A stretch of 64,000 nucleotides of DNA from an uncultured Acidobacteriota bacterium (lineage in GTDB: Bacteria > Acidobacteriota > Vicinamibacteria > Vicinamibacterales > 2-12-FULL-66-21): contig CAVZMJ010000007.1 in the NCBI GenBank assembly GCA_963776315.1, positions 69,752-133,751 of the forward strand, given 5' to 3'. Of this stretch, positions 785-59,682 are shown piece after piece. Every line of letters begins with the position of its first letter. Within the stretch, counting starts at the first letter, position 1. Under the pieces are notes generated by a model, which was not told where the DNA came from, searched no databases, and saw nothing but the letters and a program-made list of their open reading frames with translations. A program made the translations under genes and the position numbers.

Positions 785-878
785 GGGCTTCTAGGCTCTC
801 GGCTTTAGGCTCTAGGAAGATTTTCGAGTATTTGGTCAAGGTTTTGCTAAAGCCTAAAGCCTAAAGCCTAAAGCCTCA
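785..878. repeat. composite heptamer palindrome with conserved core (copy A)
   Basis: The left arm is ggcttct aggctct cggcttt aggctct (786-816). The core is gaagattttcgagtatttggtcaaggttttg (817-846). The right arm is (ctaaagc)x4 (847-874), the reverse complement of the left-arm unit type. Confidence 0.85.
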
Positions 879-1750: not shown

Positions 1751-1818
1751 CGTGGCCATCGTCTCATCGTGTCCATCGTGACGGACGCACGTGGGTCTTG
1801 CAGTGACGACGCGCATCC

Positions 1819-3469
1819 TCAATTGACTCCCACCGCAGTCCAGGCTTGCGCCATGGCACGTTCGGCGGCGCTGTTGGCGCCGAAGAGATCGCGGGCCGCC
1901 TGGATCGTCGCCGCGCGCGCGACGGCGAACGTCGCGTTCGACGGCAGCATCTGCGTGAACGCGCGGTAGAACACCCGTTCGATCTGCTCGCGGTTCGCCC
2001 CGCCAACGCCCTGGACCGAGAGCCCCGACGTGCGGTTGGTGCCGCCCTCGATCGCCAGGTAATAGACGTTGTTCGCAATGCCGGAGTTGGTGTGGACGCC
2101 GCCGTTGTCCTGGGTTCCCGTGTAGCGTCGCGAGTAGTGGTCGGGATCGCCGTACGCCTGGGGATCGGCGTGCGACCGGATCCCGCCCGGCCGAAACACG
2201 TCCTCGCCCATGAGGTAGTCGGCGCGCAGGTTGCCGCTGCCGGGCTGCTGGAAGTAGAACTCGACAGAGGTCCCCATGATGTCCGAGAACGCCTCGTTGA
2301 GCGCCCCGGATTCGTTCTGATAGATCAGGTTCGACGTGTACTCGCGTCACGCCGTGCGTGAGCTCGTGGGCGACGATGTCGAGCCCAGCCGAGAAGAAGT
2401 CGACCGTCTGACCGCCGGTCGTGACGCCAGGCGGCAGGCCCTCGCCGAACAGCATGACGCCGTCGCCGGCGTAGAAGGCGTTCAGATAGAAGTCTGGCAC
2501 GAGCGGGAAGAGCTGGAAGAAGTCCGCGCGCCGCGCGGGGTGCACGAGGCAAATGAGCGGGAGGTCGCGATTGTCGAGCCCGCGGCGGGTGAATCGCTTG
2601 TAGTAGTAGTCGTACGTCCAGCCCACATAGACGTGAGCGTCGACGACGGCGCCGTCGGTCCACGTGTTGTCGGCGTCCGAGCCCAGGTCGTTTGTCGTCA
2701 GCTGGATGACCTCGTTCAGGTAGTTGATCGTGCGGAGGTAGTCGCCGCGCATGTCGTAGGTGTTGATGGCCGGCGGCCGCAGCCGGTCGGTCGTCACGAA
2801 CTGCCCGCCGCTCGGCGAGACGCTGACCTTCTTGGCGTCGCCGAGCACGCCCTGCCCGCGCCCGACGGCGCTCTGCGTCTGGAGGTCGCTGAAGTCGAAC
2901 GCGATGCTGCCGTCGCGTGCATCGACGAAGTACTCCCGGATGTCGCCCTGCGCGGCGGCGCGCACGCGCCATGTCAGCACGTAGCTGTCGCCCTGGGGCA
3001 GGATCACGAGCTCCGGCGCCCGGCCGATCTCGACCCCGGTGCGGGCTTCGATGATCTCGCGGGCGCGGTCGGCCTCGATAGCCGGCGAGGTGTCGACGTC
3101 GACGCCTTCGTAGACGTTGCCGAACGCGGAGATGATCTCGCCGCCCCTCAACTGTTCGGCGACATCGGCGCCGAACACCCGGACGCCGCGGTAGTACTGG
3201 TCGTAGCGCTCGTGCGCGCGTCCGGCCACGAGCGGATCGTCGCGACGGATGCGAAGGCGCAGCTCACCCGATCGGCGCAGGCTGTCGAGGCGCGGTGCCC
3301 AATCGCGGAGTACTGCGGACGAGCTGGACGTGATGGTGACGCGCCCGCGACCTGGCTGCTGCGCGGCAACCGGCATCAGCCAGATCGCCAGCGCGCACCC
3401 GCAGACGGCCGCGGCGCCGGCACTGAGCCTGGCAGTCCTCCATCGTGGCCCCCCCCGCGAACGTGACAT
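1819..3469 (-). pseudogene. secreted thermolysin-like (M4) zinc metalloprotease, reading frame broken once near 2343
   Basis: The N-terminal part (frame of ORF 896..3469) has a signal peptide, a propeptide and the HEXXH motif (VAHELTHGVT). The C-terminal part (ORF 1819..2277) has ..DNGGVHTNSGIANNVYYL... The two join as [33 protein letters not shown] only if one nt around 2343-2345 is removed. Confidence 0.85.
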
Positions 3470-5636: not shown

Positions 5637-7025
5637 TTACGCCCGCGCGACATCGATGAAATTGAGCGGGTCGATTCCGTAAGGCGTCGGATCGAGCGGC
5701 GAGAGCACACTGTCGGCCGCCGAGCCATCGGGATCGCGCTCCCAGAGGTTGCGCTCGAGCGGTGTGTCGTAGCGGGTGCCGTCCGGACCAAACAGGACCT
5801 TGACCCGCGGCCGATACGGATCGGGCGCGTGGACGCGCGTCACCACGGCGACCGAATTCGACGCCAGCTTGACGAGTGTGCCCGGAGGATAGATGCCGAG
5901 CAGCTGGACGAAGCGGCGCACGAGCTGCGCCTCGAAGTGCGCGCCGTCGTCTTTCTTGAGGACCGCGAGGACGCGTTCGGTCGGGAACGCCTGCTGATAC
6001 GCGCGCTGCGATCGCATGGCGTCGTACACGTCGGCAATGCTGCAGATCATCGTGCCCAGGTTGAGCGCGCTGCGCTTGGCGCCCTCGGGATAGCCGGTGC
6101 CGTCAAGGCGGAGGTGGTGCTCGAAGGCGACGACCGGTGCCAGGATCGGCATCTCGGGCGTGCGCCTGAGGATCTCGGCGCCTTCGACCGGGTGGCGCCG
6201 CATGATCACGAACTCCTGCTCGGTCAGGCGCTCGGGTTTCTGCAGGATTTCCTTCGGCGTGCGCACCTTGCCGATGTCGTGCATGAGCGCCGACAGGCCG
6301 AATTCCCTGAGGAGGCGCCCCTCGATGCCGAGCGCGCGCGCCTGGCCCATGGTGAGGATCGACACGTTCACCATGTGGGTGAACGTGTAGTTGTCGTAGT
6401 TGCGCATCGCCGTGAGCGCGACGAGCGCCGTCCGGTTCTGCGTCACCGCGTCGGCGAGGCCCTCCACGGCGTGCAGCGCCGCCGGGACATCCGGCTTGCC
6501 TTCGGCCGCGGCGCTCTCCCACAGGGTCTCCGCCGCGGAGACCGCGTTCGAGTAGAGCTGCCGGATCGCCGCCATGTCGCTCGCGATGCCGTCGCGCCCG
6601 GGCTCTTCCGAGGTGATTCGTCCGAGGCGGACGTGCGGGAAGTGCCAGGAGGGCTCGGGCCCGCCGCCCTTGGGCGACAGCTTGGCCACGCCGAGCATCA
6701 GGCCGACGACTTCTTCTGACGTGACTCCCCGCTCGAACGAGATTCGCTCGACCTTGTTCGCGAGCAGGCGATCGATCAGATCCTTCATGCCGCTGCTGGC
6801 CTTTGGCAGCGGCGTGTCGGCGACGACGAATTCGTTGTCGACGATGCCGACCGTGATCGTCGGTTGCTGCTGCTGGAGCGCCTTGAGGGCGGTGAGCAGG
6901 CCGTCGACGTTCCGGCCGAGGAGCGGATGGTCGGCGGAATAGAGCTGCGCCGCGCGGGTGCCGGAAGCGAACCGCCGCAACAGTTCGTCGTAGAGTGCCA
7001 GGCGCGCGCCGGGATCGGTGGACAT
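5637..7025 (-). CDS. HD-GYP domain c-di-GMP phosphodiesterase with N-terminal regulatory domain
   Basis: This is the C-terminal 462 aa of ORF 5637..8201, starting at ATG 7025 (MSTDPGARL..) behind an aggagcgggg ribosome-binding site. Motifs are ..LMHDIGKV.. and HHLRLDGTGYPEG. Confidence 0.9.
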   Translation of the reverse strand: MSTDPGARLALYDELLRRFASGTRAAQLYSADHPLLGRNVDGLLTALKALQQQQPTITVGIVDNEFVVADTPLPKASSGMKDLIDRLLANKVERISFERGVTSEEVVGLMLGVAKLSPKGGGPEPSWHFPHVRLGRITSEEPGRDGIASDMAAIRQLYSNAVSAAETLWESAAAEGKPDVPAALHAVEGLADAVTQNRTALVALTAMRNYDNYTFTHMVNVSILTMGQARALGIEGRLLREFGLSALMHDIGKVRTPKEILQKPERLTEQEFVIMRRHPVEGAEILRRTPEMPILAPVVAFEHHLRLDGTGYPEGAKRSALNLGTMICSIADVYDAMRSQRAYQQAFPTERVLAVLKKDDGAHFEAQLVRRFVQLLGIYPPGTLVKLASNSVAVVTRVHAPDPYRPRVKVLFGPDGTRYDTPLERNLWERDPDGSAADSVLSPLDPTPYGIDPLNFIDVARA

Positions 7026-9256: not shown

Positions 9257-9289
9257 CAATGAATCAGTCGAGTCCGGGAGCCAATGGCG

Positions 9290-9350
9290 TCATTCATCAT
9301 TCCATTCAGCATTCAATTCAGCACTCAGCATTCGACATTCAGCATTTCCC
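9290..9350. repeat. tandem cattcag-type heptamer array
   Basis: The sequence is cattcat cattc cattcag cattcaa ttcagca ctcagca ttcgaca ttcagca. It sits in the divergent spacer between the HEAT operon and deoA. The same unit (as ctgaatg) recurs at 50940-50995 and 55807-55836. Confidence 0.8.
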
Positions 9351-12378: not shown

Positions 12379-12617
12379 CCGGGGACACTCAATCGGGACA
12401 CTCAACCGGGACAGTCACGGGGGACATTCAACCTTGAGTGTCCCCGGAGGTTTGACCACGCCTTGTGCAGTTTCTGCCATAGGCAGGCCGTTTCGAGGGT
12501 TGCCAGGGTGAGTACCTGTGGTGAGTTCATGAAAGATCGTCGCCGACCTGAGTTGCCTGTTCCAACAAACCGGCCCCGGGGACAGTCAAGAGTGACTGTC
12601 CCGGTTGAGTGTCCCCG
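12379..12617. repeat. inverted arrays of a 12-13-nt unit (cgggacaYtcaa) around a short-core variant
   Basis: Positions 12379-12448 hold four tandem units followed by an inverted copy (cttgagtgtccccgg). Positions 12574-12617 hold ccccggggacagtcaag/agtgactgtcccggttgagtgtccccg. The spacer between them contains gtttcgagggttgcc (12490-12504). Confidence 0.8.
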
Positions 12618-14050: not shown

Positions 14051-14191
14051 GCTGAACGTTTGAAGTCTGACGTTTGAAGGTTGAAGTGAGGAAGGCTGAA
14101 GTTCGAAGTCGGAAGTTGGAGTTGGAAGAAGGCTGAAGTCGGAAGCTGGAAGCTGGAAAGAACCCTGAACCCTGAACCCTGAACCCTGAAC
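14051..14191. repeat. tandem array of about 20 degenerate heptamers NNNNGAA
   Basis: The array reads gctgaac gtttgaa gtctgac gtttgaa ggttgaa gtgagga .. gtcggaa gctggaa gctggaa .. ccctgaa x3. No complementary arm lies nearby. Confidence 0.85.
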
Positions 14192-20894: not shown

Positions 20895-21811
20895 CAGTGA
20901 GCGTGCCTGGTCAAATGACGAACGAAACGTCACCAACGGCGCCTGTGGCTCTAACGCCGGCTGCTCCGACCGCCCGGCCGCCGGGCTTTGTCGCCTCGAG
21001 CCTGCGCATCTTCGACCTCTCGATCGGCGAGATGCTGTGGTCGCGTCGGACGATCTTCATGGCGCTGGTCGTCGGCGCGCCGGTCCTCATCGCACTCATC
21101 CTGCGGTTGCTGGTGGGCCTGGGGGCGCCGTTTTTCGACGAGCCGAGAGGCAGTGGCAGCGGGGCCATCCGCATGAACGGCCCGGCCATGTTCGGGTTGA
21201 TCATCTGGGGCATGTACCTTCGCTTTATCGTTCCCGTGCTCGGGGTGTTCTACGGGACCTCGCTCATGGCCGACGAGATCGAGGACAAGACGATTACATA
21301 TCTGTTCACGCGGCCGATCCCCCGCGGGGCGGTGCTCGTCGGGAAATACCTCGCGTATCTGGGCTGCACCGTCTTCGTGGTGCTGCCGTCGGTCGTGCTG
21401 GTCTACCTCCTGATCGTGCCGCTCAAGGGCAGCCTGGGCGCCGCGTTCCCGGACCTCTTGAAGGACCTGCTGCTGCTCGGGCTCGGCCTGGCGGTCTATG
21501 GGGCCGTATTCGCGTTCGTCGGGGCCAAGTTCAAGCGACCCCTGCTCATCGGGCTCATCTTCGTGTTCGGCTGGGAACAGGCGGCCCTGGCGTTTCCCGG
21601 ATATCTCAAGCAGTTCACGGTGATGTTCTACCTCCAGGCCATCGTGCCGCACGCCATGCCGAGCGACGGCGTGGTCAGCATGATCCAGGGGCTCTTCCGG
21701 GAGACCCCGGGGCTCGGGACGAGCCTGTTCTGGCTGGCGGTCATCTGGGCCATATTCCTGGGCTGGGGGGCCCGGATCGTCGGGCGCAAGGAGTATGTGC
21801 TGGAGCAATAG
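20891..21811 (+). CDS. ABC-2-type transporter permease
   Basis: ORF 20891..21811 has a GTG start overlapping the upstream stop and is multi-TM. Confidence 0.7.
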   Translation: MTVSVPGQMTNETSPTAPVALTPAAPTARPPGFVASSLRIFDLSIGEMLWSRRTIFMALVVGAPVLIALILRLLVGLGAPFFDEPRGSGSGAIRMNGPAMFGLIIWGMYLRFIVPVLGVFYGTSLMADEIEDKTITYLFTRPIPRGAVLVGKYLAYLGCTVFVVLPSVVLVYLLIVPLKGSLGAAFPDLLKDLLLLGLGLAVYGAVFAFVGAKFKRPLLIGLIFVFGWEQAALAFPGYLKQFTVMFYLQAIVPHAMPSDGVVSMIQGLFRETPGLGTSLFWLAVIWAIFLGWGARIVGRKEYVLEQ

Positions 21812-21902
21812 GCTCTAGGCTTTCGGCTCTAGGCTCTAGCAAGAGCTCCGAGCAAGCTCTCGAAGGTTTTGCCCAGAGCCTAGAGCCTGAAGCCCAGAGC
21901 CG
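21810..21902. repeat. composite heptamer palindrome with conserved core (copy C)
   Basis: The left arm is aggctct aggcttt cggctct aggctct. The core is aagagctccgagcaagctctcgaaggttttgc (21841-21872). The right arm is ccagagc ctagagc ctgaagc ccagagc. Confidence 0.85.
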
Positions 21903-21991
21903 ACGTTCCCCGTCCCACCTAACTGCCGCAAACGTCGTCCTTTGCGGAACTTTTTACCCGCTGACCCGTTATAATCCACAGAGGGCTCACG

Positions 21992-23594: not shown

Positions 23595-23800
23595 GCGGAT
23601 GATAAGAACCACGGACAGCTCCGGACGCGGATCACGGAGGCACGAGACGCGGATCACGCGGATCATGGATAACACGGGACGCGGATCAGGCGGATCACGG
23701 ACAACGCGAGATGTGGATCACAAAGATTACGAACAACCTGATGACAAGCCCCGAACCCACAGCCTTGAGCTCCCGAGCCCCGAACGCCGAATCCCGACCA
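23595..23800. repeat. degenerate tandem repeats rich in gcggatca units, followed by ccccgaa-type units
   Basis: The unit cggatca occurs about 7 times between 23628 and 23722. Units ccccgaa/cccgagc occur at 23746-23799. The region fills the spacer upstream of the PilZ gene. Confidence 0.7.
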
Positions 23801-24198: not shown

Positions 24199-24339
24199 GG
24201 TTCAGGGCTCACGGCTCACGGTTCACGGTTCAGGGTTCAGGGTTCAAGCCGGATCTCGGAGTTGGTGGTCCAAGCACTACCTGAACCTTGAACCTTGAAG
24301 CCTTGAACCTTGAACCCTGAACCCTGAACCCTGAACCCC
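24199..24339. repeat. composite heptamer palindrome with diverged core (copy E)
   Basis: The left arm is ggttcag ggctcac ggctcac ggttcac ggttcag ggttcag ggttcaa. The centre is ggatctcggagttggtggtccaagcactac (24251-24280). The right arm is ctgaacc ttgaacc .. ccctgaa x3. Confidence 0.85.
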
Positions 24340-34949: not shown

Positions 34950-35117
34950 GGTTCAGGGTTCAAGGTTCAGGGTTCAAGGTTCAGCGTTCAAGGTTCAAAG
35001 GTTGCTCCAAGCGAAGGGGTTCTGAACCTGAACCCTGAACCCTGAACCCTGAACCCTGAACCCTGAACCCTGAACCCTGAACCCTGAACCCTGAACCCTG
35101 AACCCTGAACCCTGAAC
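34950..35117. repeat. asymmetric composite heptamer palindrome (copy F) ending in (CCCTGAA)x12
   Basis: The left arm has 7 units of ggttca(g/a) (34950-34998). The centre is short (aggttgctccaagcgaagggg). The right arm is ttctgaa cctgaa followed by 12 perfect ccctgaa units (35033-35116), and it abuts the stop of the gene at 35117. Confidence 0.92.
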
Positions 35118-35911: not shown

Positions 35912-36097
35912 GATGACGACAATTATTCCCTGAGTGAACCCCCGGATGTGTAGTTGTTGCTCCTCTCAACAACTGCAGAGCTCACGCGGAATCTCGAGCT
36001 CGACTGGACAAATAGCGATGAAAACGCGTGATTCTGCAGTTGCCTGTGTCTGGCAGCACTCTTGCCACAGTCGGGCCGGGACGTCTGCCTGCGAGGC

Positions 36098-36139
36098 GAG
36101 TTGGTTCCGGGAGTTGGTTCGCTGCAAGCGAGTTGGTTC
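36098..36139 (+). promoter_or_regulatory. three direct repeats of gagttggttc upstream of the 1069-aa gene (candidate operator or regulator site)
   Basis: Exact 10-mers lie at 36098-36107, 36111-36120 and 36130-36139. They sit 80-120 nt upstream of the TTG start at 36217, in a spacer of relatively low GC. Confidence 0.4.
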
Positions 36140-36216
36140 AACGTACACGTCCGTTTCGGCCAGCACTGACGTGACACGCGCTCCGTTCTAGGCGCGCGCA
36201 ACTGGGAGGTTTTGCG

Positions 36217-39200
36217 TTGCCGAAAAGGCTGATTCAGGGCGGAGCTCTATCCGCGGTGGCGTTGGTGTGCGCGTTGACTGTCAACGCGGGTCGAGTCGGT
36301 GCTCAGTCTGGCCAGTTGCCGACACCCTGGTTGAACCGCGACATAGGCGGTCCGGCGCTGACTGGCTCAGCGTCGGTGTTGGGGGACACGTTCACGGTTA
36401 CGGGTGGCGGCGTCGACATCTACAACACGAACGACGAGTTCCACTTCGTGTACCAGCCGTGGCAGGGCAACGTCGAGATCGTGGCGCGAGTCAGCTCTCT
36501 CGAGGAGCGCGATCCCTGGTCGAAGGCCGGCGTCATGATACGCGAGACGCTGACGGGCGGATCGACCCACGGGATGATGCTCGGCTCTTCGGCGAACGGC
36601 TGGCGATTCCTCCGCCGGTTTCAGACCGGTAGTGCGACGCCTCCAGGCGTGGGCCCGGGCGGCGCCTTACCCGGCTGGGTGAGGCTGGTGCGCGAAGGAA
36701 ACCAGCTCACGGGCTACCTGTCGATGGACGGCCAGACGTGGACTGTGGTCGCCACCGACACGCTTCCAATGGCGTCAACCGTGTACGTCGGTCTCGCGGT
36801 GACGAGTCACAATCCCGGCTTCACGTCGACGGCGACGTTTACCAATGTCAGGGTATCAGCGCCGAGCGGATCGGCGAACCAGCCGCCCACGGTGTCGCTG
36901 ATCAGCCCGACACTCGGTTCGACCTATACGGCACCGGCTACCATCGCGCTCGGCGCGGCGGCGGGCGACACCGATGGGGCGATTGCGAAAGTCGATTTCT
37001 ACCAGGGCACGCAGCTCGTCGCATCCGACTCGACACATCCGTACAGCGCCGATCTGACCGCCGCGGCCGCCGGCACGCTGCAATTGACGGCCGTGGCGAC
37101 CGACAGCGCGGGCACGACGGTTACCTCGTCGCCTGTCAGTGTCACGGTTAACGCAAAGAAGAATGAGGCGCCCACGGTATCGCTCACGAGCCCCTCGGCG
37201 GGTGCGACGTTCACCGCACCGGCGAGCATCACCATCGGTGCCGCCGCGAGCGACACGGACGGCGCGGTTGCGGTCGTCGATTTCTATCAGGGCTCGACGC
37301 TCATTGGATCCGACGCCACCAGTCCCTACAGCATGACCTGGGGAAGTGTGGCGGCCGGCTCGTATCAACTGACTGCGATCGCTCGGGACAACGTCGGTGC
37401 GGCGACAACGTCGGCGGCAGTCGCGGTCACGGTCAATGCAGCGGCCAATCAGCAGCCATCGGTATCGTTGTCATCACCGGCGGCTGGCGCCTCGTTCACC
37501 GCGCCGGCGAACGTGACACTCAACGCGGCCGCCAGCGATTCCGACGGAACAGTCGCAAGCGTTGAGTTCTATCGCGATTCCACACTCATTGGCTCCGACA
37601 CGACGAGTCCGTATTCGGTCGTCTGGACCGGCGCGGCGGCGGGCAGCTACTCGCTGACGGCGCGTGCCGTCGACAACGGCGGGGCGACTCGAACGTCGTC
37701 GGCCGTCGCCATCACGGTCACGGGCGCGATTAATCAGCTGCCGACCGTCTCCATGACGAGTCCGACCGCCGGACAATCGTTCTCCGCACCGGCATCGCTT
37801 ACGATCGCCGCCGCTGCCAGTGACAGCGACGGCACGATTGCCGGGGTTGACTTCTACGTCGGCGCACTGATGGTCGGAACCGACTCGACGAGTCCCTATA
37901 CGGCGGCGTGGTCCAACGTTGCCGCCGGCAGCTACTCCTTGACCGCGGTTGCGCGCGACAACGCCGGCGGCACGCGGACGTCAGCGGCGGTCGCGGTGAC
38001 AGTGACGGGAGGCGCGTCCGGGCTTCCGTCGCCCTGGGCGACGAGGGACATCGGTGCCCCCGCACTCGCCGGCACGACGTCCCTGTCGGGGACCACGTTC
38101 ACGGTGACGGGCGGCGGCGTGGATATCTTCTACACGAAGGACGAATTCCAGTTCGCCTACCAGCCCTGGCAGGGCGACGTCGAGATCGTGGCGCGCATCG
38201 ACTCTCTGCAGCAGCGCGATCCCTGGTCGAAGGCGGGGGTCATGATTCGCGAAACGCTCACAGGGGGATCCAGGCACGGGATGATGCTCGGATCGTCGGC
38301 AAACGCCTGGCGGTTTCTGCGCCGCCTACAGACAGACGGAGCGACGGCTTCGGTAGGCCCGGTCGGTGTTGTCCCCGGCTGGGTCAAGTTGGTGCGCGTC
38401 GGGAACCTGGTGACTGGCTATCAGTCAGCCGATGGCGTCAGCTGGACCGTGATCGGTACCGACACGATCACGATGGCATCGGCCGTCTACGTCGGCCTCG
38501 CCGTCACAAGTCACAATCCGGGCGCCACGTCAGCCGGCACGTTTACGAACGTCACGGTCTCAGTACCGACCGGCACATCGAATCAGCCCCCGACAGTGTC
38601 GCTCACGACGCCTGCCGCGGGTGCGAGCTTCACCGCGCCGGCAACGATCTCGGTGACCGCGGCGGCCAGTGACACGGACGGCACCGTATCGCGCGTCGAC
38701 TTCTATCAGGGCTCGACGCTCATCGGGTCCGACACGACCAGTCCGTACTCGGTGGCCTGGACTGGCGCGCCGGCGGGCAGCTACTCGCTGACGGCGCGCG
38801 CCGTCGACGATGACGGAGCGACGGGCGCCTCGACGGCCGTCGCCATCACAGTCACCGCAGCCTCCAATCAGTTGCCGACCGTCTCGATCACGAGCCCGAT
38901 CGCGGGACAATCGTTCACTGCGCCGGCGTCGCTGACGATCACCGCCGCGGCAAGCGACGCCGATGGCACGATCGCGAGGGTCGATTTCTACGCCGGGACG
39001 CAGCTCATCGCGGGGGTTTCGACGAGCCCCTATACCGCGCCGTGGACCAACGTTGCGGTCGGCAGTTACTCGCTGACGGCCGTCGCGCGCGACAACGCCG
39101 GCGGAACGCGGACGTCAGGTGCCGTGCCCATCACTGTCTCGGCAACCGCCCCGGGTCCGACGACGCTCATCTTCGGCGCCTCCTCCGATCACGCTACCAA

Positions 39201-39426
39201 CGTCACGTCTTATATCGTGGCGCTCTATCGCGCCGTCGATCCTGTGACGGCCAGCCCTGTCGCGACGCGCGACATCGGCAAGCCGACCCCCGTCAACGGA
39301 GACATCTCGGTCGACATCTCCACGCTCGTCAACCCACTGCCGGCCGGTTCGTACTACGCCGTCGTCCGAGCATCAGGACCGGGAGGGACGGCCGCCAGCG
39401 CGCCGTCGGCAGTGTTCACCAAATAG
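36217..39426 (+). CDS. large secreted repeat protein: two concanavalin/LamG-like jelly-roll domains, six Ig-like ~95-aa repeats and a C-terminal FN3-like domain
   Basis: ORF 36217..39426 is intact, with a gggagg ribosome-binding site and a signal peptide. The lectin-like domains (~36310-36860 and ~38010-38575) share ..WQG(N/D)VEIVAR..DPWSKAGVMIRETLTGGS.HGMMLGSSAN.WRFLRR... The Ig-like repeats share ..N(Q)xPTVS(L/I)TSP.AG.SFTAPA...AAASD.DG....VDFY.G..L.G.D.TSPY...W.....GSYSLTA.A.DN.G... Confidence 0.75.
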   Translation: MPKRLIQGGALSAVALVCALTVNAGRVGAQSGQLPTPWLNRDIGGPALTGSASVLGDTFTVTGGGVDIYNTNDEFHFVYQPWQGNVEIVARVSSLEERDPWSKAGVMIRETLTGGSTHGMMLGSSANGWRFLRRFQTGSATPPGVGPGGALPGWVRLVREGNQLTGYLSMDGQTWTVVATDTLPMASTVYVGLAVTSHNPGFTSTATFTNVRVSAPSGSANQPPTVSLISPTLGSTYTAPATIALGAAAGDTDGAIAKVDFYQGTQLVASDSTHPYSADLTAAAAGTLQLTAVATDSAGTTVTSSPVSVTVNAKKNEAPTVSLTSPSAGATFTAPASITIGAAASDTDGAVAVVDFYQGSTLIGSDATSPYSMTWGSVAAGSYQLTAIARDNVGAATTSAAVAVTVNAAANQQPSVSLSSPAAGASFTAPANVTLNAAASDSDGTVASVEFYRDSTLIGSDTTSPYSVVWTGAAAGSYSLTARAVDNGGATRTSSAVAITVTGAINQLPTVSMTSPTAGQSFSAPASLTIAAAASDSDGTIAGVDFYVGALMVGTDSTSPYTAAWSNVAAGSYSLTAVARDNAGGTRTSAAVAVTVTGGASGLPSPWATRDIGAPALAGTTSLSGTTFTVTGGGVDIFYTKDEFQFAYQPWQGDVEIVARIDSLQQRDPWSKAGVMIRETLTGGSRHGMMLGSSANAWRFLRRLQTDGATASVGPVGVVPGWVKLVRVGNLVTGYQSADGVSWTVIGTDTITMASAVYVGLAVTSHNPGATSAGTFTNVTVSVPTGTSNQPPTVSLTTPAAGASFTAPATISVTAAASDTDGTVSRVDFYQGSTLIGSDTTSPYSVAWTGAPAGSYSLTARAVDDDGATGASTAVAITVTAASNQLPTVSITSPIAGQSFTAPASLTITAAASDADGTIARVDFYAGTQLIAGVSTSPYTAPWTNVAVGSYSLTAVARDNAGGTRTSGAVPITVSATAPGPTTLIFGASSDHATNVTSYIVALYRAVDPVTASPVATRDIGKPTPVNGDISVDISTLVNPLPAGSYYAVVRASGPGGTAASAPSAVFTK

Positions 39427-39427
39427 A

Positions 39428-39538
39428 CAGGCTCAGGACTCAGGGCTCAAGGCTCAGGGCTCAGGGCTCACGCAAGATCTTCGAGCATGTGGTCGAACGG
39501 TTTTGCTTGAGCCCTGAGCCTTGAGCCCTGAGCCTGCC
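39428..39538. repeat. composite heptamer palindrome with conserved core (copy B, best exemplar)
   Basis: The left arm is caggctc aggactc agggctc aaggctc agggctc agggctc. The core is cgcaagatcttcgagcatgtggtcgaacggttttgc (39471-39506). The right arm is ttgagcc ctgagcc ttgagcc ctgagcc. Confidence 0.9.
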
Positions 39539-39551
39539 TTATACTGCGACG

Positions 39552-40208
39552 ATGTGCCGCATCGGATCCGTCATCGTCGCTCTGTGCATCGCTGTTGCCG
39601 TTCCGCTGCACGCGCAGCGGAGCCGAACGACAGGAAAGAAACCGGTGCCGGCACCCAAGCCGGTGCCGAAGACGGAGCCGGCGGCGGTCACGTGTCCCGA
39701 GCAGCTGGGGACGGGGCTCAGGACCAAGCTGCAGTTCTGCTTCGTGCTCGCGGGTCGGGATCCGGCCGAGGGCGTGCTCGTGGCGATTCCGCCGCACACG
39801 CAGGCGACGCTGACCTTCGATCTGCACAACAGGCACACCTACTCTGAAGAAGAGATCCGGGCGGGCCGCGGTTTCGCGAAGTACACCGCTGTCATCGGCG
39901 TGCTGTCGATGACCGGCGACCTCCTCGGTCGCGGTGCGGTGCAGACGGAATTCCGGGCGGTCAAGGATCTGTTCGATCGCATCACCGGCGGCGCCGGCCC
40001 GGGTGGGACCAAGGCGGTCGCGCCGCTCGGCCGCGAGCAGGTCAGCATCACCATCCCGGCAGGTGTCGATCAGGTGAGCCTGCTCGGCGAAGTCCTGGAA
40101 GCGACCACGGCCGCCGGCCGCGAGGTGGCCACGCCGGGACGGCCCGTCGCGATCGTCAGCAACGTGCAGGTCACTTACCTGCCCGCACCGCCGCCACGGA
40201 AGAAGTAG
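39552..40208 (+). CDS. secreted hypothetical protein
   Basis: ORF 39552..40208 has a signal peptide (MCRIGSVIVALCIAVAVPLHAQ) and a Pro/Lys-rich linker. I recognise no motif. Confidence 0.55.
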   Translation: MCRIGSVIVALCIAVAVPLHAQRSRTTGKKPVPAPKPVPKTEPAAVTCPEQLGTGLRTKLQFCFVLAGRDPAEGVLVAIPPHTQATLTFDLHNRHTYSEEEIRAGRGFAKYTAVIGVLSMTGDLLGRGAVQTEFRAVKDLFDRITGGAGPGGTKAVAPLGREQVSITIPAGVDQVSLLGEVLEATTAAGREVATPGRPVAIVSNVQVTYLPAPPPRKK

Positions 40209-40217
40209 GTGATTCTA

Positions 40218-40330
40218 GAGGTTCAGGGTTCAGGGTTCAGCGTTCAGAGTTCAACGTTCAGCGTTCTTGTGAACCCTGAACCGTGAACCTTGAACCCTGA
40301 ACCGTGAACCCTGAACCCTGAACCCGTTCA
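40218..40330. repeat. core-less heptamer hairpin (ggttcag-type arms)
   Basis: About 7 units of (g/c)gttca(g/a/c), a ttgt loop, then about 9 units of gaacc(c/g/t)t. Confidence 0.85.
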
Positions 40331-40345
40331 AGCTATGATCGCCTG

Positions 40346-41360
40346 ATGGTACTTCGTGACGTCATCGTCGTTGGTGCGGGTCCGGCGGGGCTGGCCACCG
40401 CAATCGCCGCTTCCAAGAGCAAGTTGTCCTGTCAGGTCATCGAAAAGGGCGCGCTCGTCAATTCGCTCCTGCACTATCCGACTGAGATGGTGTTCTTCAC
40501 GACCCCCGAGCTGATGGAAATCGGGGGCATGCCGTTTGTCAGTCCCTACGACAAGCCGACGCGCCTCGAGGCGCTTCGCTATTACCGGCGCGTGTCCGAC
40601 GCCTTCAAGCTGGACATCGTATTCGACGAGGCTGTTGTCGCGGTGAGCCGCGACGCATGTCGCCCGACGGGTCGCCCGACGGCGCCGGGTCGTTCGTCGT
40701 CGACACGCATTCGACACGCGGCGTGCGCCGGTCGCTTCACGGACGAACGGTCGTCGTCGCCACTGGCGCGTACGACATTCCCAATCGCATCGGCGTCCCG
40801 GGCGAGGATCTGCCGCACGTCTCGCACTACTACACGCAGCCGCACCGTTCTTCCGGAAGAAGGTGGTGATCGTCGGCGGGAAGAACTCCTCGGCCGAGGC
40901 CGCGCTCGACCTCTATCGAGCCGGCGCGCAGGTCACGATCGTGCACCGCGGCGCCGGCGATGGGAGATTCCATCAAGTACTGGGTCAAGCCCGACATCGA
41001 CAACCGCATCAAGGAAGGCTCGATCCGTGCGCGCTTCAACACGCACGTCGTCGAGATCCGCCCGACGAGCGTGGTCGTCGAGCGCGAAGGCGTGACCGAC
41101 GAGATCGACGGCCGACGCGGTGTTCCTGCTGACCGGCTACGGCGCGGACACGACGCTGCTGCGGAACGCCGGAATCGAGATCGATCCCGTGACGTGCGGC
41201 CCGGTCTTCGACGCCGAGACGTTCGAGACCAACGTGCCGGGAATCTACGCCGTGGGGCGCGATGGTGGCGGGCGTCCAGAGCGGCCGGATCTTCATCGAG
41301 AACGGCCGCTTCCACGGCGAGAAGGTGATTGAGGCGATCGCGGCAAGACTGCGGAGATAA
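40346..41360 (+). pseudogene. YpdA-family FAD/NAD(P)-dependent disulfide reductase-like protein, 5 frame changes
   Basis: Motifs are MVLRDVIVVGAGPAGLATAIAA.. and ..VNSLLHYPTEMVFFTTPELMEIGGMPF..KPTRLEALRYYRRV... Pieces lie in ORFs 40346.., 40657.., 40863.., 40960.. and 41120.., with a last frame from 41262 to TAA 41358-41360. Confidence 0.75.
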
Positions 41361-41363
41361 GCT

Positions 41364-41464
41364 GGCTCAGGGCTCAAGGTTCAGGGCTCAAGGTTCAAGG
41401 TTCAAGCCTTCAGGAACCCTTACTCGCAAGATCTTGCCGAACCCTGAACCCTGAACCCTGAACC
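41364..41464. repeat. composite heptamer palindrome, core in inverted orientation (copy D)
   Basis: The left arm is ggctcag ggctcaa ggttcag ggctcaa ggttcaa ggttcaa. The centre is ttcaggaacccttactcgcaagatcttgcc and includes the perfect palindrome gcaagatcttgc (41426-41437). The right arm is (gaaccct)x3. Confidence 0.85.
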
Positions 41465-41472
41465 AGCCCTCG

Positions 41473-42103
41473 TCAGTGCTCCCCTCCCCACTTGTTCTGC
41501 GCGACAATCACTTTCATCTCGAGCAGCTCGATGAGCGAGCGGCAGCGGGCGAGCAGGCCGTCGCGTTCGAGCAGGGCCTGTTTTTCGACGGGTTCGAGCT
41601 CGAGGTACTGCGCAAGGGCGTTGACGAGATCTTCGTCGGCCATCGACGCCGGCACCTTGGTGTCGGACGCCCCGGCCCTTGGGTTGCGGCACCAGCAGCG
41701 ATTCGAGCCGCCGCCGCGCGAGGCGCATCTCGTCCCGCTCTTCGCCGTTGGCCGGTACGTCCTCGATCCCGTCGACGCGCGCCAGACGATACGGCCGGCT
41801 GTCGTCCTCGTCGAGGACGCGGAACTTCTCCAGGCCCTGCAGGACGATGTTGTAGCGGCCGTCCCCGAGCCGTTCCGCGTGCGTGATGAGACCCGCGCAC
41901 CCCACCGGATAAATGGCCGGCCTGCCCTCGTAGTTCTCTTCCCAGCCGGGCCGGAGCAGGACCATCCCGATGATGCGGTCCTCGGTCAGCGCGTCCGCCA
42001 CCATGTCGCGGTACCGGTCCTCGAACACGTGCAACGGCAGGAACACGTTTGGAAAGAGCACGACGTTCGGCAGCGGGAAGAGAGGAATGGTCGGTGGCAG
42101 CAT
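41473..42103 (-). pseudogene. stand-alone Lon N-terminal (LON substrate-binding) domain protein, one frame change near 41680-41700
   Basis: ORF 41420..42103 begins MLPPTIPLFPLPNVVLFPNVFLPLHVFEDRYRDM... The C-terminus lies in ORF 41473..41655 (..DEDLVNALAQYLELEPVEKQALLE..). Confidence 0.75.
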
Positions 42104-43583: not shown

Positions 43584-43658
43584 TCAGCTCTCAGCCGTCC
43601 AGCTCTCAGCTATCAGCTCTCTGCTCCAGCTGACAGCTGATGGCTGACGGCTGAGAGC
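43584..43658. repeat. core-less heptamer hairpin between the ATPase and vWA genes
   Basis: Units are of the cagctct/tcagctg type. A 13-bp perfect outer stem pairs gctctcagccgtc (43587-43599) with gacggctgagagc (43646-43658). Confidence 0.8.
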
Positions 43659-45242: not shown

Positions 45243-46100
45243 ATGAGGGCCTTGGCCGAGTTTTCTCAGCCCGGGCTGTCCCGGCCGCTCGTGTTCGCCC
45301 ATCGCGGCGGCGCCGCGCTGCGGCCGGAGAACACGATGGCGGCGTTCGACCACGGACTGTCGCTCGGCGCCGACGGTGTCGAGCTCGACGTTCATCTGTC
45401 GCGCGACGGCGTCGTCGTCGTGCATCACGACGACACGCTCGAGCGCACGACGGACGCGAGCGGGCCGATTGCCGCGCGGAGCGCGGATGAGCTCGCGCAC
45501 GTCGACGCAGGTTACCGGTTCACACCCGACTCGAGTGCGTCTGCACCCGCGCATCCTTTTCGTGGACAGCAGATCGGTGTGCCCCGATTGCGTGCCGTGC
45601 TCGAGCGGCATCCGGCCGCCCGGGTCATCATCGAGCTCAAGACGCCCGAGGCCGAGCTGGCGCACCGGACGATCGACGATGTCCGCGCGGCGGGCGCGGT
45701 CGACCGCGTCGTGCTCGGTTCCTTCCACTGGCGCGCGCTCGACGCGGCGCGCCGCTACGAGCCACGCATTCCGACCGGTGCCGCAAGCGAAGAGACGCGG
45801 TGGGCGCTGTACCGATCGCGCGTGCGCTGGCCGCTCGGCCGGACGAAGTACCGCGAGTTCCAGGTGCCGGAGCGCTCGGGCGCGACGGTGATCGTCACGC
45901 CGCAGTTCATCGCGCACGCTCACCGCGCTGGCCTGCCGGTTCGCATCTGGACCGTCGACGAGCGCGAGGACATGGTGCGGCTCCTGGAGTGGGGCGCCGA
46001 CAGCGTGATCAGCGACCGTCCGGACATAGCCGTGCCGGTGGTGCGCGAGTGGGCCAGCGGGTCAAACCGGGGTCAGACCAAAGGTCTGACCCCGGTTTGA
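45243..46100 (+). CDS. glycerophosphodiester phosphodiesterase
   Basis: ORF 45243..46100 has ..VFAHRGG..ENT..AF.. and ..GADGVELDVHLSRDGVVVVHHDDTLERTT... The last ~12 codons are read from an 18-bp perfect hairpin. Confidence 0.85.
   Translation: MRALAEFSQPGLSRPLVFAHRGGAALRPENTMAAFDHGLSLGADGVELDVHLSRDGVVVVHHDDTLERTTDASGPIAARSADELAHVDAGYRFTPDSSASAPAHPFRGQQIGVPRLRAVLERHPAARVIIELKTPEAELAHRTIDDVRAAGAVDRVVLGSFHWRALDAARRYEPRIPTGAASEETRWALYRSRVRWPLGRTKYREFQVPERSGATVIVTPQFIAHAHRAGLPVRIWTVDEREDMVRLLEWGADSVISDRPDIAVPVVREWASGSNRGQTKGLTPV
46062..46100. other. 18-bp perfect inverted repeat between convergent genes (possible bidirectional terminator, no T-tract)
   Basis: The sequence is tcaaaccggggtcagacc aaa ggtctgaccccggtttga. 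It is followed by a partial third copy (ccccggtctg). Confidence 0.6.
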
Positions 46101-46118
46101 CCCCGGTCTGCCCCCCGC

Positions 46119-47858: not shown

Positions 47859-48130
47859 TCACGAAGGCAACGCGTTCAACACGAAGCAACGAAGCCGAAC
47901 GAAGACGAACGACGCGCTGGTCGGCCGCGCTACGCGCGGCTGCGCAGGGGAGCATGCCAAAAACGCAAGCATCTTATCGAATCTCCTGATGCTTGCGTTT
48001 TCGGCAAGCCCCCCTGCGCGAGACGCCGGCCGTCGGCCGGCGTCCGACCAGCGGTGCAATCGGTGAGTTCTTGACAGTTCTTCTTCGTTCGTCTTCGGTC
48101 GCTTCGGTCCTTCGTGTCGAACCGTTGCCT
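47859..48130. repeat. 270-nt nested palindromic element (heptamer arms plus 10-bp helix plus three internal hairpins) upstream of aceE
   Basis: The outer arms are cacgaag/caacgaa units (47859-47914) versus cttcgtt/cttcggt units (48081-48130). A helix pairs cgctggtcgg (47915-24) with ccgaccagcg (48044-53). The internal hairpins lie at 47925-39, 47940-48022 (about 37 bp, with a 14-nt loop) and 48023-43. Confidence 0.85.
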
Positions 48131-48242
48131 CCGTCGGCTCCGTCAAAATCCGTCCAGGCCCTCAGCGTCCCCCCTCGTCCCGCGCTACAATAAGCGGATT
48201 GTAATCCCGACGAAGTTTCGCAGAGAGAAAGCTTGGACCCCC

Positions 48243-50933
<2,691 letters not shown>

Positions 50934-50939
50934 CAAGGC

Positions 50940-51016
50940 AATGCTGAATGCTGAATGCTGAATGCTGAAGTACGAATGCAGAATGCAGAATGCTGACAGC
51001 TGATAGCTGATAGCTA
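50940..51016. repeat. tandem array of 11 heptamers filling the aceE-aceF spacer
   Basis: The array is aatgctg x4, aagtacg, aatgcag x2, aatgctg, acagctg, atagctg, atagcta. It ends exactly at the aceF ATG. Confidence 0.9.
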
Positions 51017-52370: not shown

Positions 52371-52468
52371 CACGAGACAATCACGATGGACACGATGGCA
52401 CGATGAACACGATGATGTTGGTTTCATCGTGTCCATCGTGTCATCGTGCCCATCGTGCGAGGATCGTG
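52371..52468. repeat. core-less heptamer hairpin (cacgatg / catcgtg) in the aceF-lpdA spacer
   Basis: The left arm is cacgaga caatcacgatg gacacgatg gcacgatg aacacgatg. The loop is atgttggtt. The right arm is tcatcgtg tccatcgtg tcatcgtg cccatcgtg cgaggatcgtg. Confidence 0.9.
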
Positions 52469-55806: not shown

Positions 55807-55960
55807 GAAATGCTGAATGCTGAGTTCTGAATGCTGTTGGTCTGCAACTCTTGGCTGCCGGAACCCCGAACCCCGAACCCCGAACCCCGAGCGCCCGAAC
55901 TCCGAACCCCGAACGCCGAACCCCGAACCCCGAACCCCGAACCGAGCCGAACGTCCCGAA
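55807..55960. repeat. tandem arrays: ctgaatg-type units, then about 14 ccccgaa units
   Basis: Positions 55807-55836 read gaaatgctgaatgctgagttctgaatgctg. Positions 55859-55960 hold ccccgaa and variants (ccccgag, ctccgaa, cgccgaa). No complementary arm is present. Confidence 0.9.
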
Positions 55961-55984: not shown

Positions 55985-56681
55985 ATGACTCCTCTCGCGA
56001 TTACGTGGTACGGCCACTCCACCTTCGTCATCACCACCCCTGGCGGCAAGCGCATCGTCACGGACCCGTGGCTCGAGGGGAACCCGAAATGCCCCCCGGG
56101 TGCACGCATCGACAAGGCCGACGTCATCCTGCTGTCTCCACGGGCACTCGGACCATACGGGCGATGCCGTCAGCGTCGCGCGCGCGACCGGAGCGCCGGT
56201 GGTTGCCATCCACGAGCTGTCGTTGTGGCTCGGGCGGAAGGGGCTGCAGAACGTCAAGGGCATGGGGATCGGCGGGACGATCACCGTCGCCGGGCTCGAG
56301 GTCACGATGACGCCGGCGGTCCACAGCAGCAGCGTCGTCGAGAACGACGAGATCGTCTATTTGGGCCAGCCCGCGGGTTTCGTCGTGCGGATGGAGGATC
56401 GGCGGGCGTTCTACTTCGCCGGTGATACGGCGCTCTTCGGTGACATGCGCCTCATCGCCGACGTCCACGCGCCGGAGATCGCCTTTCTGCCGATCGGCGA
56501 TCACTACACCATGGGCCCCGAAGACGCCGCGCGCGCGTGCAAGCTGCTCCTGGTCCGCCAGGTCGTCCCAATGCACTACGCCACGTTCCCGATCCTGACG
56601 GGAACGCCCGAGCGCCTGAAAGAGCTCGTGGAACCGGGCGTCGACGTGCTGGTCCTCGAGCCAGGGGAGACGGCTGAATAG
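55985..56681 (+). pseudogene. metal-dependent hydrolase, MBL fold (UPF0173 family), one frame change near 56138
   Basis: The sequence MTPLAITWYGHSTFVITTPGGKRIVTDPW..ADVILLS in the frame of ORF 55817.. joins HGHSDHTGDA.. in ORF 56100..56681. There is an extra nt in ctgtctccacggg. Confidence 0.8.
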
Positions 56682-56788
56682 CTCCCAGCTCCCAGCTTTC
56701 GGCTTCCAGCTGAGAGCGTTCAGAGCCTAACCGAGCGATTGGGATCTCGAGGGTTTGGCTGGAAGCTGGCGGCTGGAAGCTGGAAGCT
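56680..56788. repeat. composite heptamer palindrome with short-core variant (copy M)
   Basis: The left arm is agctccc agctccc agctttc ggcttcc agc. The centre ends in ..gattgggatctcgagggtttg. The right arm is gctggaa gctggcg gctggaa gctggaa gct, ending at the ATG at 56789. Confidence 0.85.
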
Positions 56789-59367: not shown

Positions 59368-59682
59368 ATGGGATCGATATCCGTCGCCTGTTACAAGCCT
59401 CGCCCGGGCTGCGAGCAAGCGCTGCTCTCGCTCGTGCGCGATCACCTGCCGCCGCTGCGCGCCGAAGGGCTCGTCACCGGCCGGCCGTCGATTGTGATGC
59501 GCACGGCGGATGGAACGATCGTGGAGGTCTTCGAGTGGGTTTCGAAGGAGGCGATCGCCGGCGCGCATACGAACCCGGTCGTCCTGAACCTGTGGAAGCG
59601 GTTCGAGGCCGTGTGCTCGTACCAGACGCCGTCCAATATCGCCGAGTTTCAGAACTTGTTCGCGCATTTCGAGGCGGTGTGA
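59368..59682 (+). CDS. small hypothetical protein (104 aa)
   Basis: ORF 59368..59682 is intact and has an aaggagg ribosome-binding site. I recognise no diagnostic motif. Its size and composition are compatible with a small alpha+beta (ABM-like) fold, but that is a guess. Confidence 0.5.
   Translation: MGSISVACYKPRPGCEQALLSLVRDHLPPLRAEGLVTGRPSIVMRTADGTIVEVFEWVSKEAIAGAHTNPVVLNLWKRFEAVCSYQTPSNIAEFQNLFAHFEAV

Follow-up and report, generated by a model that had tools for sequence, protein, structure and literature searches.

A family of palindromic repeats outside genes was found in a 64,000-nt stretch of DNA (G+C 66%; contig CAVZMJ010000007.1) from an uncultured Acidobacteriota bacterium; this whole stretch is called the window below. 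The typical element consists of four heptamer units, a 34-nt apical hairpin (the core) and four inverted units, and its approximately 90 nt form one hairpin. With slightly better than even confidence, we read these elements as a lineage-specific, dispensable repeat family that evolves at the DNA level, similar to the repetitive extragenic palindromic (REP) sequences and their hairpin-forming doublets (REPINs).

The exemplar, at 39428–39538, reads exactly as an earlier note on this DNA had divided it, with a left arm, a core and a right arm. The core was matched by a covariance model (CM), R1, that was built from 47 copies, all from outside the window, and is therefore independent of it.

39430–39470, left arm of the exemplar, six units: GGCTCAG GACTCAG GGCTCAA GGCTCAG GGCTCAG GGCTCA
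39472–39506, plus strand, core of the exemplar, 35 nt, CM R1 E = 1e-17
39507–39534, right arm of the exemplar, four YTGAGCC units: TTGAGCC CTGAGCC TTGAGCC CTGAGCC

The left arm starts 4 nt after the stop codon TAG (39424–39426) of a gene for a 1069-aa Ig-like-domain protein, and the right arm is followed by TATACT, 6 nt and then an ATG at 39552. In detail, the exemplar core is made up of the 5′ stem GCAAGATCTTCGA (39472–39484), the loop GCATGTGG (39485–39492) and the 3′ stem TCGAAcGGTTTTGC (39493–39506), which carries a one-base bulge; two G·T wobbles are found in the stem. When folded, as the earlier note had proposed, the single strand gave one long hairpin of −81.3 kcal/mol as RNA (z = −9.9) and of −44 kcal/mol as DNA (z = −9.25), and none of 200 shuffled sequences folded as well.

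Across the copies, the consensus core is a 34-nt apical hairpin, GCAAGATCTTCGA / 8-nt loop (consensus GTAAGTGG) / TCGAAGGTTTTGC, with a stem of 13 bp that includes two fixed wobbles, one G·T and one T·G. Flanked by the invariant CGAG and CGAAGG, these 8 loop nt read TAAGTGGT. The loops vary around one consensus and almost always keep a length of 8, while the stems are nearly invariant. The core pattern AAGANNTNCGAG-N(6-18)-GGTTTTGC occurred three times in the window vs. 0.00 times expected from 100 shuffles, and the covariance model built from outside copies found the three long cores at 39465–39513 (E = 1e-17), 21832–21880 (E = 3.7e-12) and 808–854 (E = 6e-11). The similarity of the cores, which had been judged by eye in the earlier note, is thus beyond that of shuffled sequence, and the proposed repeat family with a conserved centre is real. 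The conservation of that centre was borne out, but not its separateness, as it is the top of the arm stem, a 13-bp apical hairpin with an 8-nt loop. A further match of the model at 59528–59548 lies in coding sequence without arms and was set aside as chance.

Besides the exemplar, five copies in the window were assigned to the family with differing confidence.

786–875, plus strand, full member: left arm of GGCTYTN units at 786–814, right arm of 4 × TAAAGCC at 848–875
21809–21901, plus strand, full member: arms TAGGCTC / YAGAGCC, core at 21839–21872, CM E = 3.7e-12
41364–41464, minus strand, full member with inverted core, core at 41404–41437
24199–24339, plus strand, probable decayed member: arms GGTTCAS / GGCTCAC, tip at 24247–24281 reading GCCGGATCTCGGAGTTGGTGGTCCAAG..
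56680–56788, plus strand, putative truncated member: arms AGCTCCC / GGAAGCT, tip keeping only GATCTCGAGGGTTTGGC (56743–56759)

The copies that had been proposed at 785–878 and 21810–21902 are both full members (CM E = 6e-11 and 3.7e-12). The core of the first, at 815–847, reads GGAAGATTTTCGAG TATTTGGT CAAGGTTTTGC (E = 6e-11), and the element sits 20 nt 3′ of the stop codon of a minus-strand peptidase M4 gene (896–3469). The second carries the derived core variant GCAAGAGCT, and the stop codon TAG of an ABC-2 permease gene lies within its first arm unit. The copy at 41364–41464, described earlier as having its core inverted, is also a true member. It lies between convergent genes with stop codons at 41358–41360 and 41473–41475, its arms mix GGCTCAR and GGTTCAR units on one side and have GAACCCT on the other, and the reverse complement of its core reads GCAAGATCTTgCGAGTAAGgGTTC..GAAGGcTTG. 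This minus-strand core was found by nhmmer, with a hand alignment of bare cores as query, at E = 0.04–0.07 over the whole search space of 0.26–0.32 Mb, and the E-value is far smaller when hairpin tips alone are taken as the search space.

The two remaining copies are less clear. At 24199–24339, where a diverged core had been noticed, the tip keeps the 5′ half of the core (10 of 14 bases) and the loop (6 of 8 bases), and this copy alone is not significant (nhmmer E = 14, CM E = 2). However, at the same gene end a core remnant, GCAAGATCTTGAG, was found in the relative L171 and a clear core in the relative L173 (E = 7e-10), so a decayed copy is plausible and the element is probably a decayed member. 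The hairpin at 56680–56788 fills the entire spacer from the stop codon TAG (56679–56681) to the next ATG (56789). Its remnant TCTCGAGGGTTTGGC (56745–56759) matches, in 15 of 15 bases, the 3′ end of a variant full core in the metagenome locus L143, which reads GCAAGATCTTCGAG AGTTCTCT CGAGGGTTTGGC; this gives modest support to a truncated member that keeps the 3′ half of the core only.

The arms belong to a marked excess of period-7 repeats. The window contains 25 period-7 arrays (1049 nt) vs. 0.6 in shuffles, and 0–1 arrays for each of the periods 5, 6 and 8–13. Part of the period-7 arrays form inverted pairs, that is, hairpins, and part are direct arrays 5′ of start codons. Among core-bearing copies, the arm units are GGCTCAR in about three quarters and GGCTCTA / GGCTTTA in about one fifth, with GGGATCA (L145), ATCAGCT (L120) and GGTTCAR (41364 in the window) as rare types. 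The earlier note rightly stated that the arms vary between copies and yet are mutually inverted within a copy, but its description of the units as unrelated and copy-specific has to be dropped, as GGCTCAR, GGCTCTA/GGCTTTA, GGTTCAR and GGGATCA differ by one or two bases and form subfamilies. Four units per side is the commonest arm (left 27/43, right 22/43); left and right arm lengths are uncorrelated, the arrays of a pair are 29–46 nt apart, and the median element is 90 nt long. In register, positions 2–7 of the arms are 74–98% paired, with CG-to-TA exchanges in the GGCTCTA subfamily, while the R/Y position (position 7 of the heptamer GGCTCAR) shows random pairing (A·C 20, G·C 16, G·T 12, A·T 6), so it is not pairing that is selected there.

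The presence of the core followed the unit type. In the local data, a sample partly selected for the core, all 37 GGCTC-type inverted pairs carry it, while seven of the eight pairs of other unit types lack it. The core-less pairs are six of the GGTTCA type and the AGCTCCC type, plus one of two of the GGGATCA type; the exception with a core is the other GGGATCA-type pair, L145. The following hairpins of the window lack the core.

34950–35117, heptamer hairpin without core: about seven GGTTCAR vs. 14 CTGAACC units, between convergent genes
40221–40325, heptamer hairpin without core: GGTTCAG / TGAACCC, loop of 4–5 nt
43584–43658, heptamer hairpin without core: TCAGCTC / CAGCTGA, filling the spacer between two minus-strand genes

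Direct heptamer arrays were seen at 14098–14191, 50940–51015, 55809–55943 and 9291–9346, some of them in divergent spacers, with the units GAAGTYG, GGAAGCT, GAACCCT, AATGCTG, GAACCCC (× 12) and CATTCAG. Among five relatives, a direct array 3′ of a dCMP deaminase gene has anything between 0 and about 25 units.

Further copies exist beyond the window. A scan of one genome per species with the core pattern gave at least 118 matches, mostly chance; among the matches listed, 11 had heptamer arms on both sides, all in five metagenome-assembled genomes (MAGs) named 'uncultured Acidobacteriota', and none of the armed copies came from another kind of organism. One of these MAGs holds five of the 11, and a twelfth copy surfaced in one of these loci. 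A scan of metagenomes of the Joint Genome Institute (JGI) with a stricter pattern gave 50 matches, 42 of them with arms and mostly from soil samples. In all, about 55 core-sharing copies were found outside the window, in soil metagenomes and the five MAGs, and the core was absent from viral contigs and phage records. The best matches of the window proteins are to Vicinamibacterales (Acidobacteriota); a JGI metagenome contig, for example, encodes a protein with 86% identity to the 1069-aa Ig-like-domain protein (36217–39426), and further matches are named Vicinamibacterales. As far as sampled, the family is limited to one Vicinamibacterales-like acidobacterial lineage, and extrapolation from four copies in 64 kb gives roughly hundreds of copies per genome.

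Several matches were rejected as members. Those on plasmids are plain direct arrays, not the composite element: on the alphaproteobacterial Peteryoungia desertarenae plasmid NZ_CP058351.1 (610706–610746; L170), which has five such GGCTCAG places, (GGCTCAG)8 forms a perfect direct array 5′ of a MarR gene, so that the same heptamer is a plain microsatellite in an unrelated phylum. A contig labelled Anaerolinea (L039) has a canonical terminator that fits the search pattern by accident, and another locus (L094) is a chance match within coding sequence.

Comparison of the same gene ends among relatives revealed extensive turnover. At the exemplar site, the element is also present in L001, in which the neighbouring protein is 86% identical; its unit numbers there are 4/7 (6/4 in the window), the core stems are identical and five of eight loop bases are changed. 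In L175 (76% identical) the core is symmetrised to GCAAAACC...GGTTTTGC, a change of the 5′ half by which the two wobbles together became perfectly complementary to the 3′ half. After the ABC-2 permease gene, a forward core with the derived GCAAGAGCT lies between GGCTCTA arms in the window and in L171 (95%); in L173 (87%) this derived core is inverted and the arms are GGCTCAR. The hairpin of L172 (91%) is of the GGTTCA type and lacks the core, and the site of L174 (85%) is empty and reads TGA gcc gttcgtccc. Similar turnover was observed at the PilZ gene end. The 41364 element is missing at the same site in L001, and instead of the 75-nt TCAGCTC hairpin at 43584, L001 has only the 12-nt palindrome TCTCAG|CTGAGA. 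Of the other core-less hairpins, the 34950 site is kept in L001 (4733–4852) with an unrelated loop, and the 40221 hairpin occurs at the same site in L001 and L175 with other unit numbers and types. Individual copies are dispensable, and the elements evolve by change of unit number, joint change of both arms, inversion of the tip and symmetrisation of the tip; at some gene ends the core is lost or the whole element is absent.

These modes of turnover are the signatures of fold-back processes at the DNA level, namely slippage, quasi-palindrome template switching and recombination between inverted repeats. In a dispensable REP-like family, the arms would be microsatellites that grow and shrink by replication slippage, and the likeness of the arms to each other, and of the two halves of the tip, would be kept by mutual templating in fold-back DNA, that is, by quasi-palindrome template switching. 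Recombination between the inverted arms would flip the tip, and the random orientation of the core would follow from this flipping. The core and its GGCTCAR arms may have spread between loci as one mobile unit through some enzyme, or else the tip may have spread by gene conversion with the shared 28-nt arms as homology. The elements would build up at gene 3′ ends because insertions are tolerated there, and in transcripts the stem, of about 40 bp, may have an incidental part in protecting or processing mRNA 3′ ends, at most as a secondary effect.

The elements lie at gene 3′ ends, usually 0–20 nt from the stop codon. Oriented on the core, 17 were counted in convergent spacers, 11 antisense and five sense in same-direction spacers, and five in divergent spacers, counts that are approximate because the surrounding genes were called with a self-trained codon-usage script. 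An element that starts 0–20 nt after stop codons and is rare in divergent, promoter-only spacers could also be one that benefits the host as RNA, a hairpin in the 3′ untranslated region that ends transcription without a U-tract, blocks 3′-to-5′ exonucleases or serves RNase III as a processing site between cistrons, with an RNA-binding protein on the tip. We regard this explanation as possible but rather unlikely. It would suit the very stable fold, the scarcity of canonical terminator-like sites (two at 34–44 kb vs. 5.3 in shuffles), and the elements at 56680 and 43584, which fill entire stop-to-start spacers inside apparent operons. However, the core has no preferred direction relative to transcription, and in same-direction spacers an antisense position relative to the upstream gene is no rarer than a sense position (11 vs. 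5), so a directional terminator was rejected. Moreover, the core is flipped at the same gene end in a relative, and at the same gene ends in L174 and L001 the element is absent with nothing in its place.

Terminator sequences at these sites also speak against a transcription-ending role. Three prime of the 21809 element, at 21912–21975, a canonical terminator (CCGCAAA-N8-TTTGCGG, then AACTTTTT) already stands, followed by a TATAAT box, and both are strongly conserved in all five genomes, the empty-site L174 included; this conservation demonstrates that classical terminators exist in the lineage beside the heptamer hairpins. Three prime of the right arms no T-run was found, and a terminator consensus scan flagged none of the elements. 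With both core orientations in use, the earlier claim that these are not plain U-tract terminators holds. A promoter in the right arm, with TTGAGC as −35 box, was likewise rejected, as its distance from the conserved TATACT / TATGAT boxes is unsuitable and no promoter was detected in the consensus scan.

The strand on which the elements fold appeared at first sight in favour of the RNA role, since the forward-core strand folds better in 52 of 56 copies, with a mean difference of 9.5 kcal/mol. But almost all of this advantage comes from the two core wobbles: once a neutral loop was put in place of the core, the arms alone favoured the forward strand in 34 vs. 22 copies (Wilcoxon p = 0.03, binomial p = 0.14). 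One in seven arm positions, in addition, is not kept paired. GC skew was weak in the 8-kb loci used to compare core orientation with replication.

Some observations weigh against a purely dispensable, REP-like family. The core stem keeps its sequence across copies, with no compensatory changes, and it is the loops that vary. The two wobbles are kept in nine of ten copies that had not been selected by the pattern, and symmetrised cores are rare (one vs. 53 in the local data, one of ten among copies not pattern-selected). A stem conserved in sequence, with wobbles kept despite possible symmetrisation, suggests selection on the core, for example by a binding partner, and a purely selfish or neutral model would seem to leave this conservation unexplained. 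It leaves room for a partner that recognises the tip, either a protein on the 13-8-13 duplex or a hairpin-specific enzyme, and also for an RNA role, against which orientation, flipping, empty sites and the separate terminator at the 21809 element argue. The invariance of the core is in part overstated, because most outside copies were gathered with patterns that fix much of its sequence; six copies not gathered in this way have uncompensated stem changes. Further, neither a target-site duplication nor a direct repeat or common motif was found to flank 59 copies, and among the annotated genes around the copies, in the 8–20-kb pieces that make up our host-genome material, there was no gene for a transposase or partner protein; for these reasons mobility between loci is something we infer rather than observe. 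Two copies, L147 and L150, are flanked by a further, older inverted repeat and look as though they lay at the tip of that earlier hairpin.

More far-reaching, and in our judgement unlikely, is the idea that the 34-nt hairpin is an independent, tiny mobile module that lands at the symmetry centre of heptamer palindromes, with a dedicated fold-back replication process producing the palindromes and remodelling them by growth, flipping and correction to perfect symmetry. An enzyme with a preference for folded DNA would move such a module, or it would be copied between loci through the shared arms. If true, the module and the fold-back process would make up a two-layer repeat system in a major soil phylum, and we know of no described counterpart except the poorly understood small dispersed repeats (SDRs) of Nostoc.

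The conserved tip could instead be a sequence-specific DNA site for a protein, with 13-bp inverted repeats around a variable spacer of about 8 bp and the arms secondary; a tyrosine recombinase, a hairpin-specific (HUH / Y1) enzyme or a nucleoid protein would be the candidates. We consider this quite improbable. Tyrosine-recombinase sites, loxP and FRT for example, are built in the same way, with 13-bp inverted repeats around a spacer of about 8 bp, but the likeness is one of layout alone. Conservation of the half-sites beyond pairing, a spacer variable in sequence and nearly fixed in length at 8, a function independent of the direction of transcription, and the same two half-site differences in nine of ten unbiased copies would all agree with a protein site. 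However, no candidate protein gene lies near any copy, the estimated hundreds of copies per genome would be unusual for a recombination site, and copies decay freely (24199 and 56680 in the window; variants in L136, L123 and L154).

An artefact or chance, through low complexity or through fold-back and indel errors of long-read assembly, is effectively refuted: apparent frameshifts in the window (a split pyruvate dehydrogenase (PDH) E1 gene; an oxidoreductase of 249 vs. 337 aa) suggest an error-prone assembly, but the same elements occur in independent assemblies of different projects (JGI metagenomes, ENA/NCBI MAGs and the window), and shuffles never reproduced the core pattern, the period-7 arrays or the fold energy. 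As to these frameshifts, the PDH E1 gene (48114–50947) is split over several overlapping open reading frames (ORFs), the oxidoreductase ORF (40346–41360) ends at 249 aa vs. 337 aa in L001, and the gene calls of L174 are fragmented in a similar way to this region; frameshift errors of long-read assembly, or pseudogenes, are the likely cause in the window.

Among known repeats, REP elements, bacterial interspersed mosaic elements (BIMEs) and REPINs come close to the present family. They are likewise abundant imperfect palindromes at gene 3′ ends and in convergent spacers, with conserved stems, variable loops, scatter around a master sequence and site-by-site dispensability, and their possible side effects on mRNA stability have been pointed out (PMC3116915). 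The copy number and location observed here, four copies in 64 kb with 17 in convergent, 16 in same-direction and five in divergent spacers, are of the REP type. On the other hand, the arms here are microsatellites of variable unit number while REP sequences are fixed, and the conserved part lies at the tip instead of in the arms. REP sequences and REPINs are associated with RAYT (Y1) transposase genes, and no RAYT gene was seen among the genes annotated in the 8–20-kb pieces around the copies. The GTAG-type tetranucleotide of REP sequences was found neither at the core ends and the adjacent unit (47-copy consensus) nor in the 20-nt outer flanks. Hence the statement that the element does not fit REP/BIME is right as regards this defining feature, and wrong as regards distribution and evolution, which are REP/BIME-like.

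The other exclusions made earlier were upheld. Miniature inverted-repeat transposable elements with fixed terminal inverted repeats do not fit, as the number and type of the arm units vary and no target-site duplication was found at 59 copies. CRISPR arrays have direct repeats of 24–48 nt with unique spacers of similar length between them, while here 7-nt units abut each other in inverted arrays. The element matches no Rfam family: at gathering thresholds Rfam gave zero matches in the whole window, and the exemplar at E ≤ 10 matched only generic long hairpins like miRNA precursors, far under threshold. A search of the window for tRNA and tmRNA found none. As regards integron attC boxes (RYYYAAC ... 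GTTRRRY), the core ends GCAAGA...TTTTGC do not fit on direct reading, and instead of cassettes, ordinary chromosomal genes in conserved order flank the elements; they include those for peptidase M4, ABC-2 permease, PilZ, a hybrid histidine kinase, GTP cyclohydrolase I and a LON-domain protein. With intrinsic terminators, bidirectional ones among them, the elements share a hairpin right after the stop codon, and the tip alone resembles a weak terminator, with the stem CUUCGA/UCGAAG followed by GUUUUGC and with AAGA upstream. Unlike intrinsic terminators, however, the complete hairpin has no U-tract and a random orientation, and a separate terminator stands 3′ of the 21809 copy.

The assertion that nothing similar had been described was too strong, in view of the inverted GGGAATC pairs of Xanthomonas, which together with cyanobacterial heptamer repeats are the nearest described counterpart. 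About 185 arrays of this heptamer, mostly of four units, were reported in Xanthomonas genomes (X. campestris / X. axonopodis), 70–75 cases being inverted array pairs (Rehm et al., 2015; PMC4692102). In that report most arrays lie in intergenic DNA, at a mean distance of 28 nt from the preceding ORF, and few lie between divergent genes; they keep their sites in related species while length and sequence vary, and the arrays of a pair are 21–67 nt apart in the nine pairs among the first 30 rows of its list (PMC4692102). The family described here equally has inverted four-unit heptamer arrays that are intergenic and close to the upstream ORF: among 25 period-7 arrays, the four-unit arms are 29–46 nt apart and 0–20 nt from the stop codon. 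Differences lie in the host phylum and in the unit, as GGGAATC is G-rich and has been studied for G-quadruplexes, while the GGCTCAR-type units show no runs of at least three G repeated four times. The report on Xanthomonas mentions no conserved central hairpin between the arrays, and flipping and symmetrisation of a core are not described for those arrays. A literature search for such elements in Acidobacteriota found nothing.

Heptamer repeats are also present in other phyla. Elhai and colleagues reportedly described in 2008 the Nostoc SDRs as tiny hairpin-like repeats with conserved inverted ends and a variable centre, nested in heptamer arrays. The SDRs are 21–27 nt long, vs. 34 nt here, and unrelated in sequence, the nesting in heptamer arrays being alike. 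The cyanobacterial heptamer repeats, short tandemly repeated repetitive sequences (STRR), were reportedly described by Mazel in 1990. Both STRR and the TAACTGA repeats of Beggiatoaceae are mostly direct arrays (PMC4679880). They share with the present family the intergenic tandem heptamers spread genome-wide, but differ in that the arrays here are inverted and in that their hosts belong to other phyla.

Palindromic repeats outside genes and inverted heptamer microsatellites are therefore already known, while the conserved, flippable 34-nt apical hairpin and its documented turnover at the same gene ends are new. Slippage, joint arm change, tip inversion and palindrome correction at identical gene ends make the family a natural system for the origin, persistence and turnover of palindromic repeats, and the Xanthomonas parallel suggests that a general, still unexplained rule may lie behind bacterial heptamer repeats. 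Few soil bacteria are as abundant as Acidobacteriota, and hardly any work has been devoted to the non-coding DNA of this phylum. On the practical side, MAG assembly and annotation are especially prone to error at the elements, which could also serve for strain typing. If the tip has a binding partner, this would be a new nucleic-acid-recognising protein.

Another palindrome of the window, proposed earlier as a family member with a short core, proved to be different.

12379–12617, separate palindromic element, non-member: 13-mer arms (GGGACACTCAACC), centre of about 150 nt

Of the two short cores in the earlier note, only that at 56680 can stand, as the putative truncated member with the 3′ core half; the element at 12379 belongs to another family, with 13-mer arms and a centre unrelated to the 34-nt core. 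It has 3–4 left units, lies 3′ of a nucleoside transporter gene and is kept in L171 (1358–1612), L173 (1334–1600) and L174 (1664–1900). At the same site L172 has a simple 17-bp hairpin instead.

Two genes 3′ of hairpins have a −10-like box (TATACT / TATGAT) 6 nt before the ATG and no Shine-Dalgarno sequence. The boxes lie at 39540–39554 and 40331–40348 in the window, at 9268–9285 and 10034–10049 in L001, and at 6179–6196 and 7066–7081 in L175. Such conserved boxes without a Shine-Dalgarno sequence suggest that these two genes have leaderless mRNAs, which would start right after the elements.

Repeats of other periods were also observed. An 11-mer hairpin (GGTCTGACCCC / CGGGGTCAGAC) at 46059–46115 lies between convergent genes, extends into the 3′ end of one of them, a GDPD gene, and is kept with more units in L001 (15477–15580). 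Arrays of 9-mers (CACGATGGA, complement CATCGTG..) occur at 1747–1780 and 52371–52468, the latter forming a hairpin with 45-nt arms between two same-direction genes. An inverted repeat at 47942–48019, 5′ of the PDH E1 gene, has 32-nt arms that are 91% complementary, a 14-nt loop and no internal periodicity. An array with a 32-nt period built on ACGCGGATCACGG lies at 23625–23721, 5′ of a PilZ gene, and three copies of GAGTTGGTTC lie at 36090–36140 in the divergent spacer 5′ of the 1069-aa gene; these last two repeats may be operator-like.

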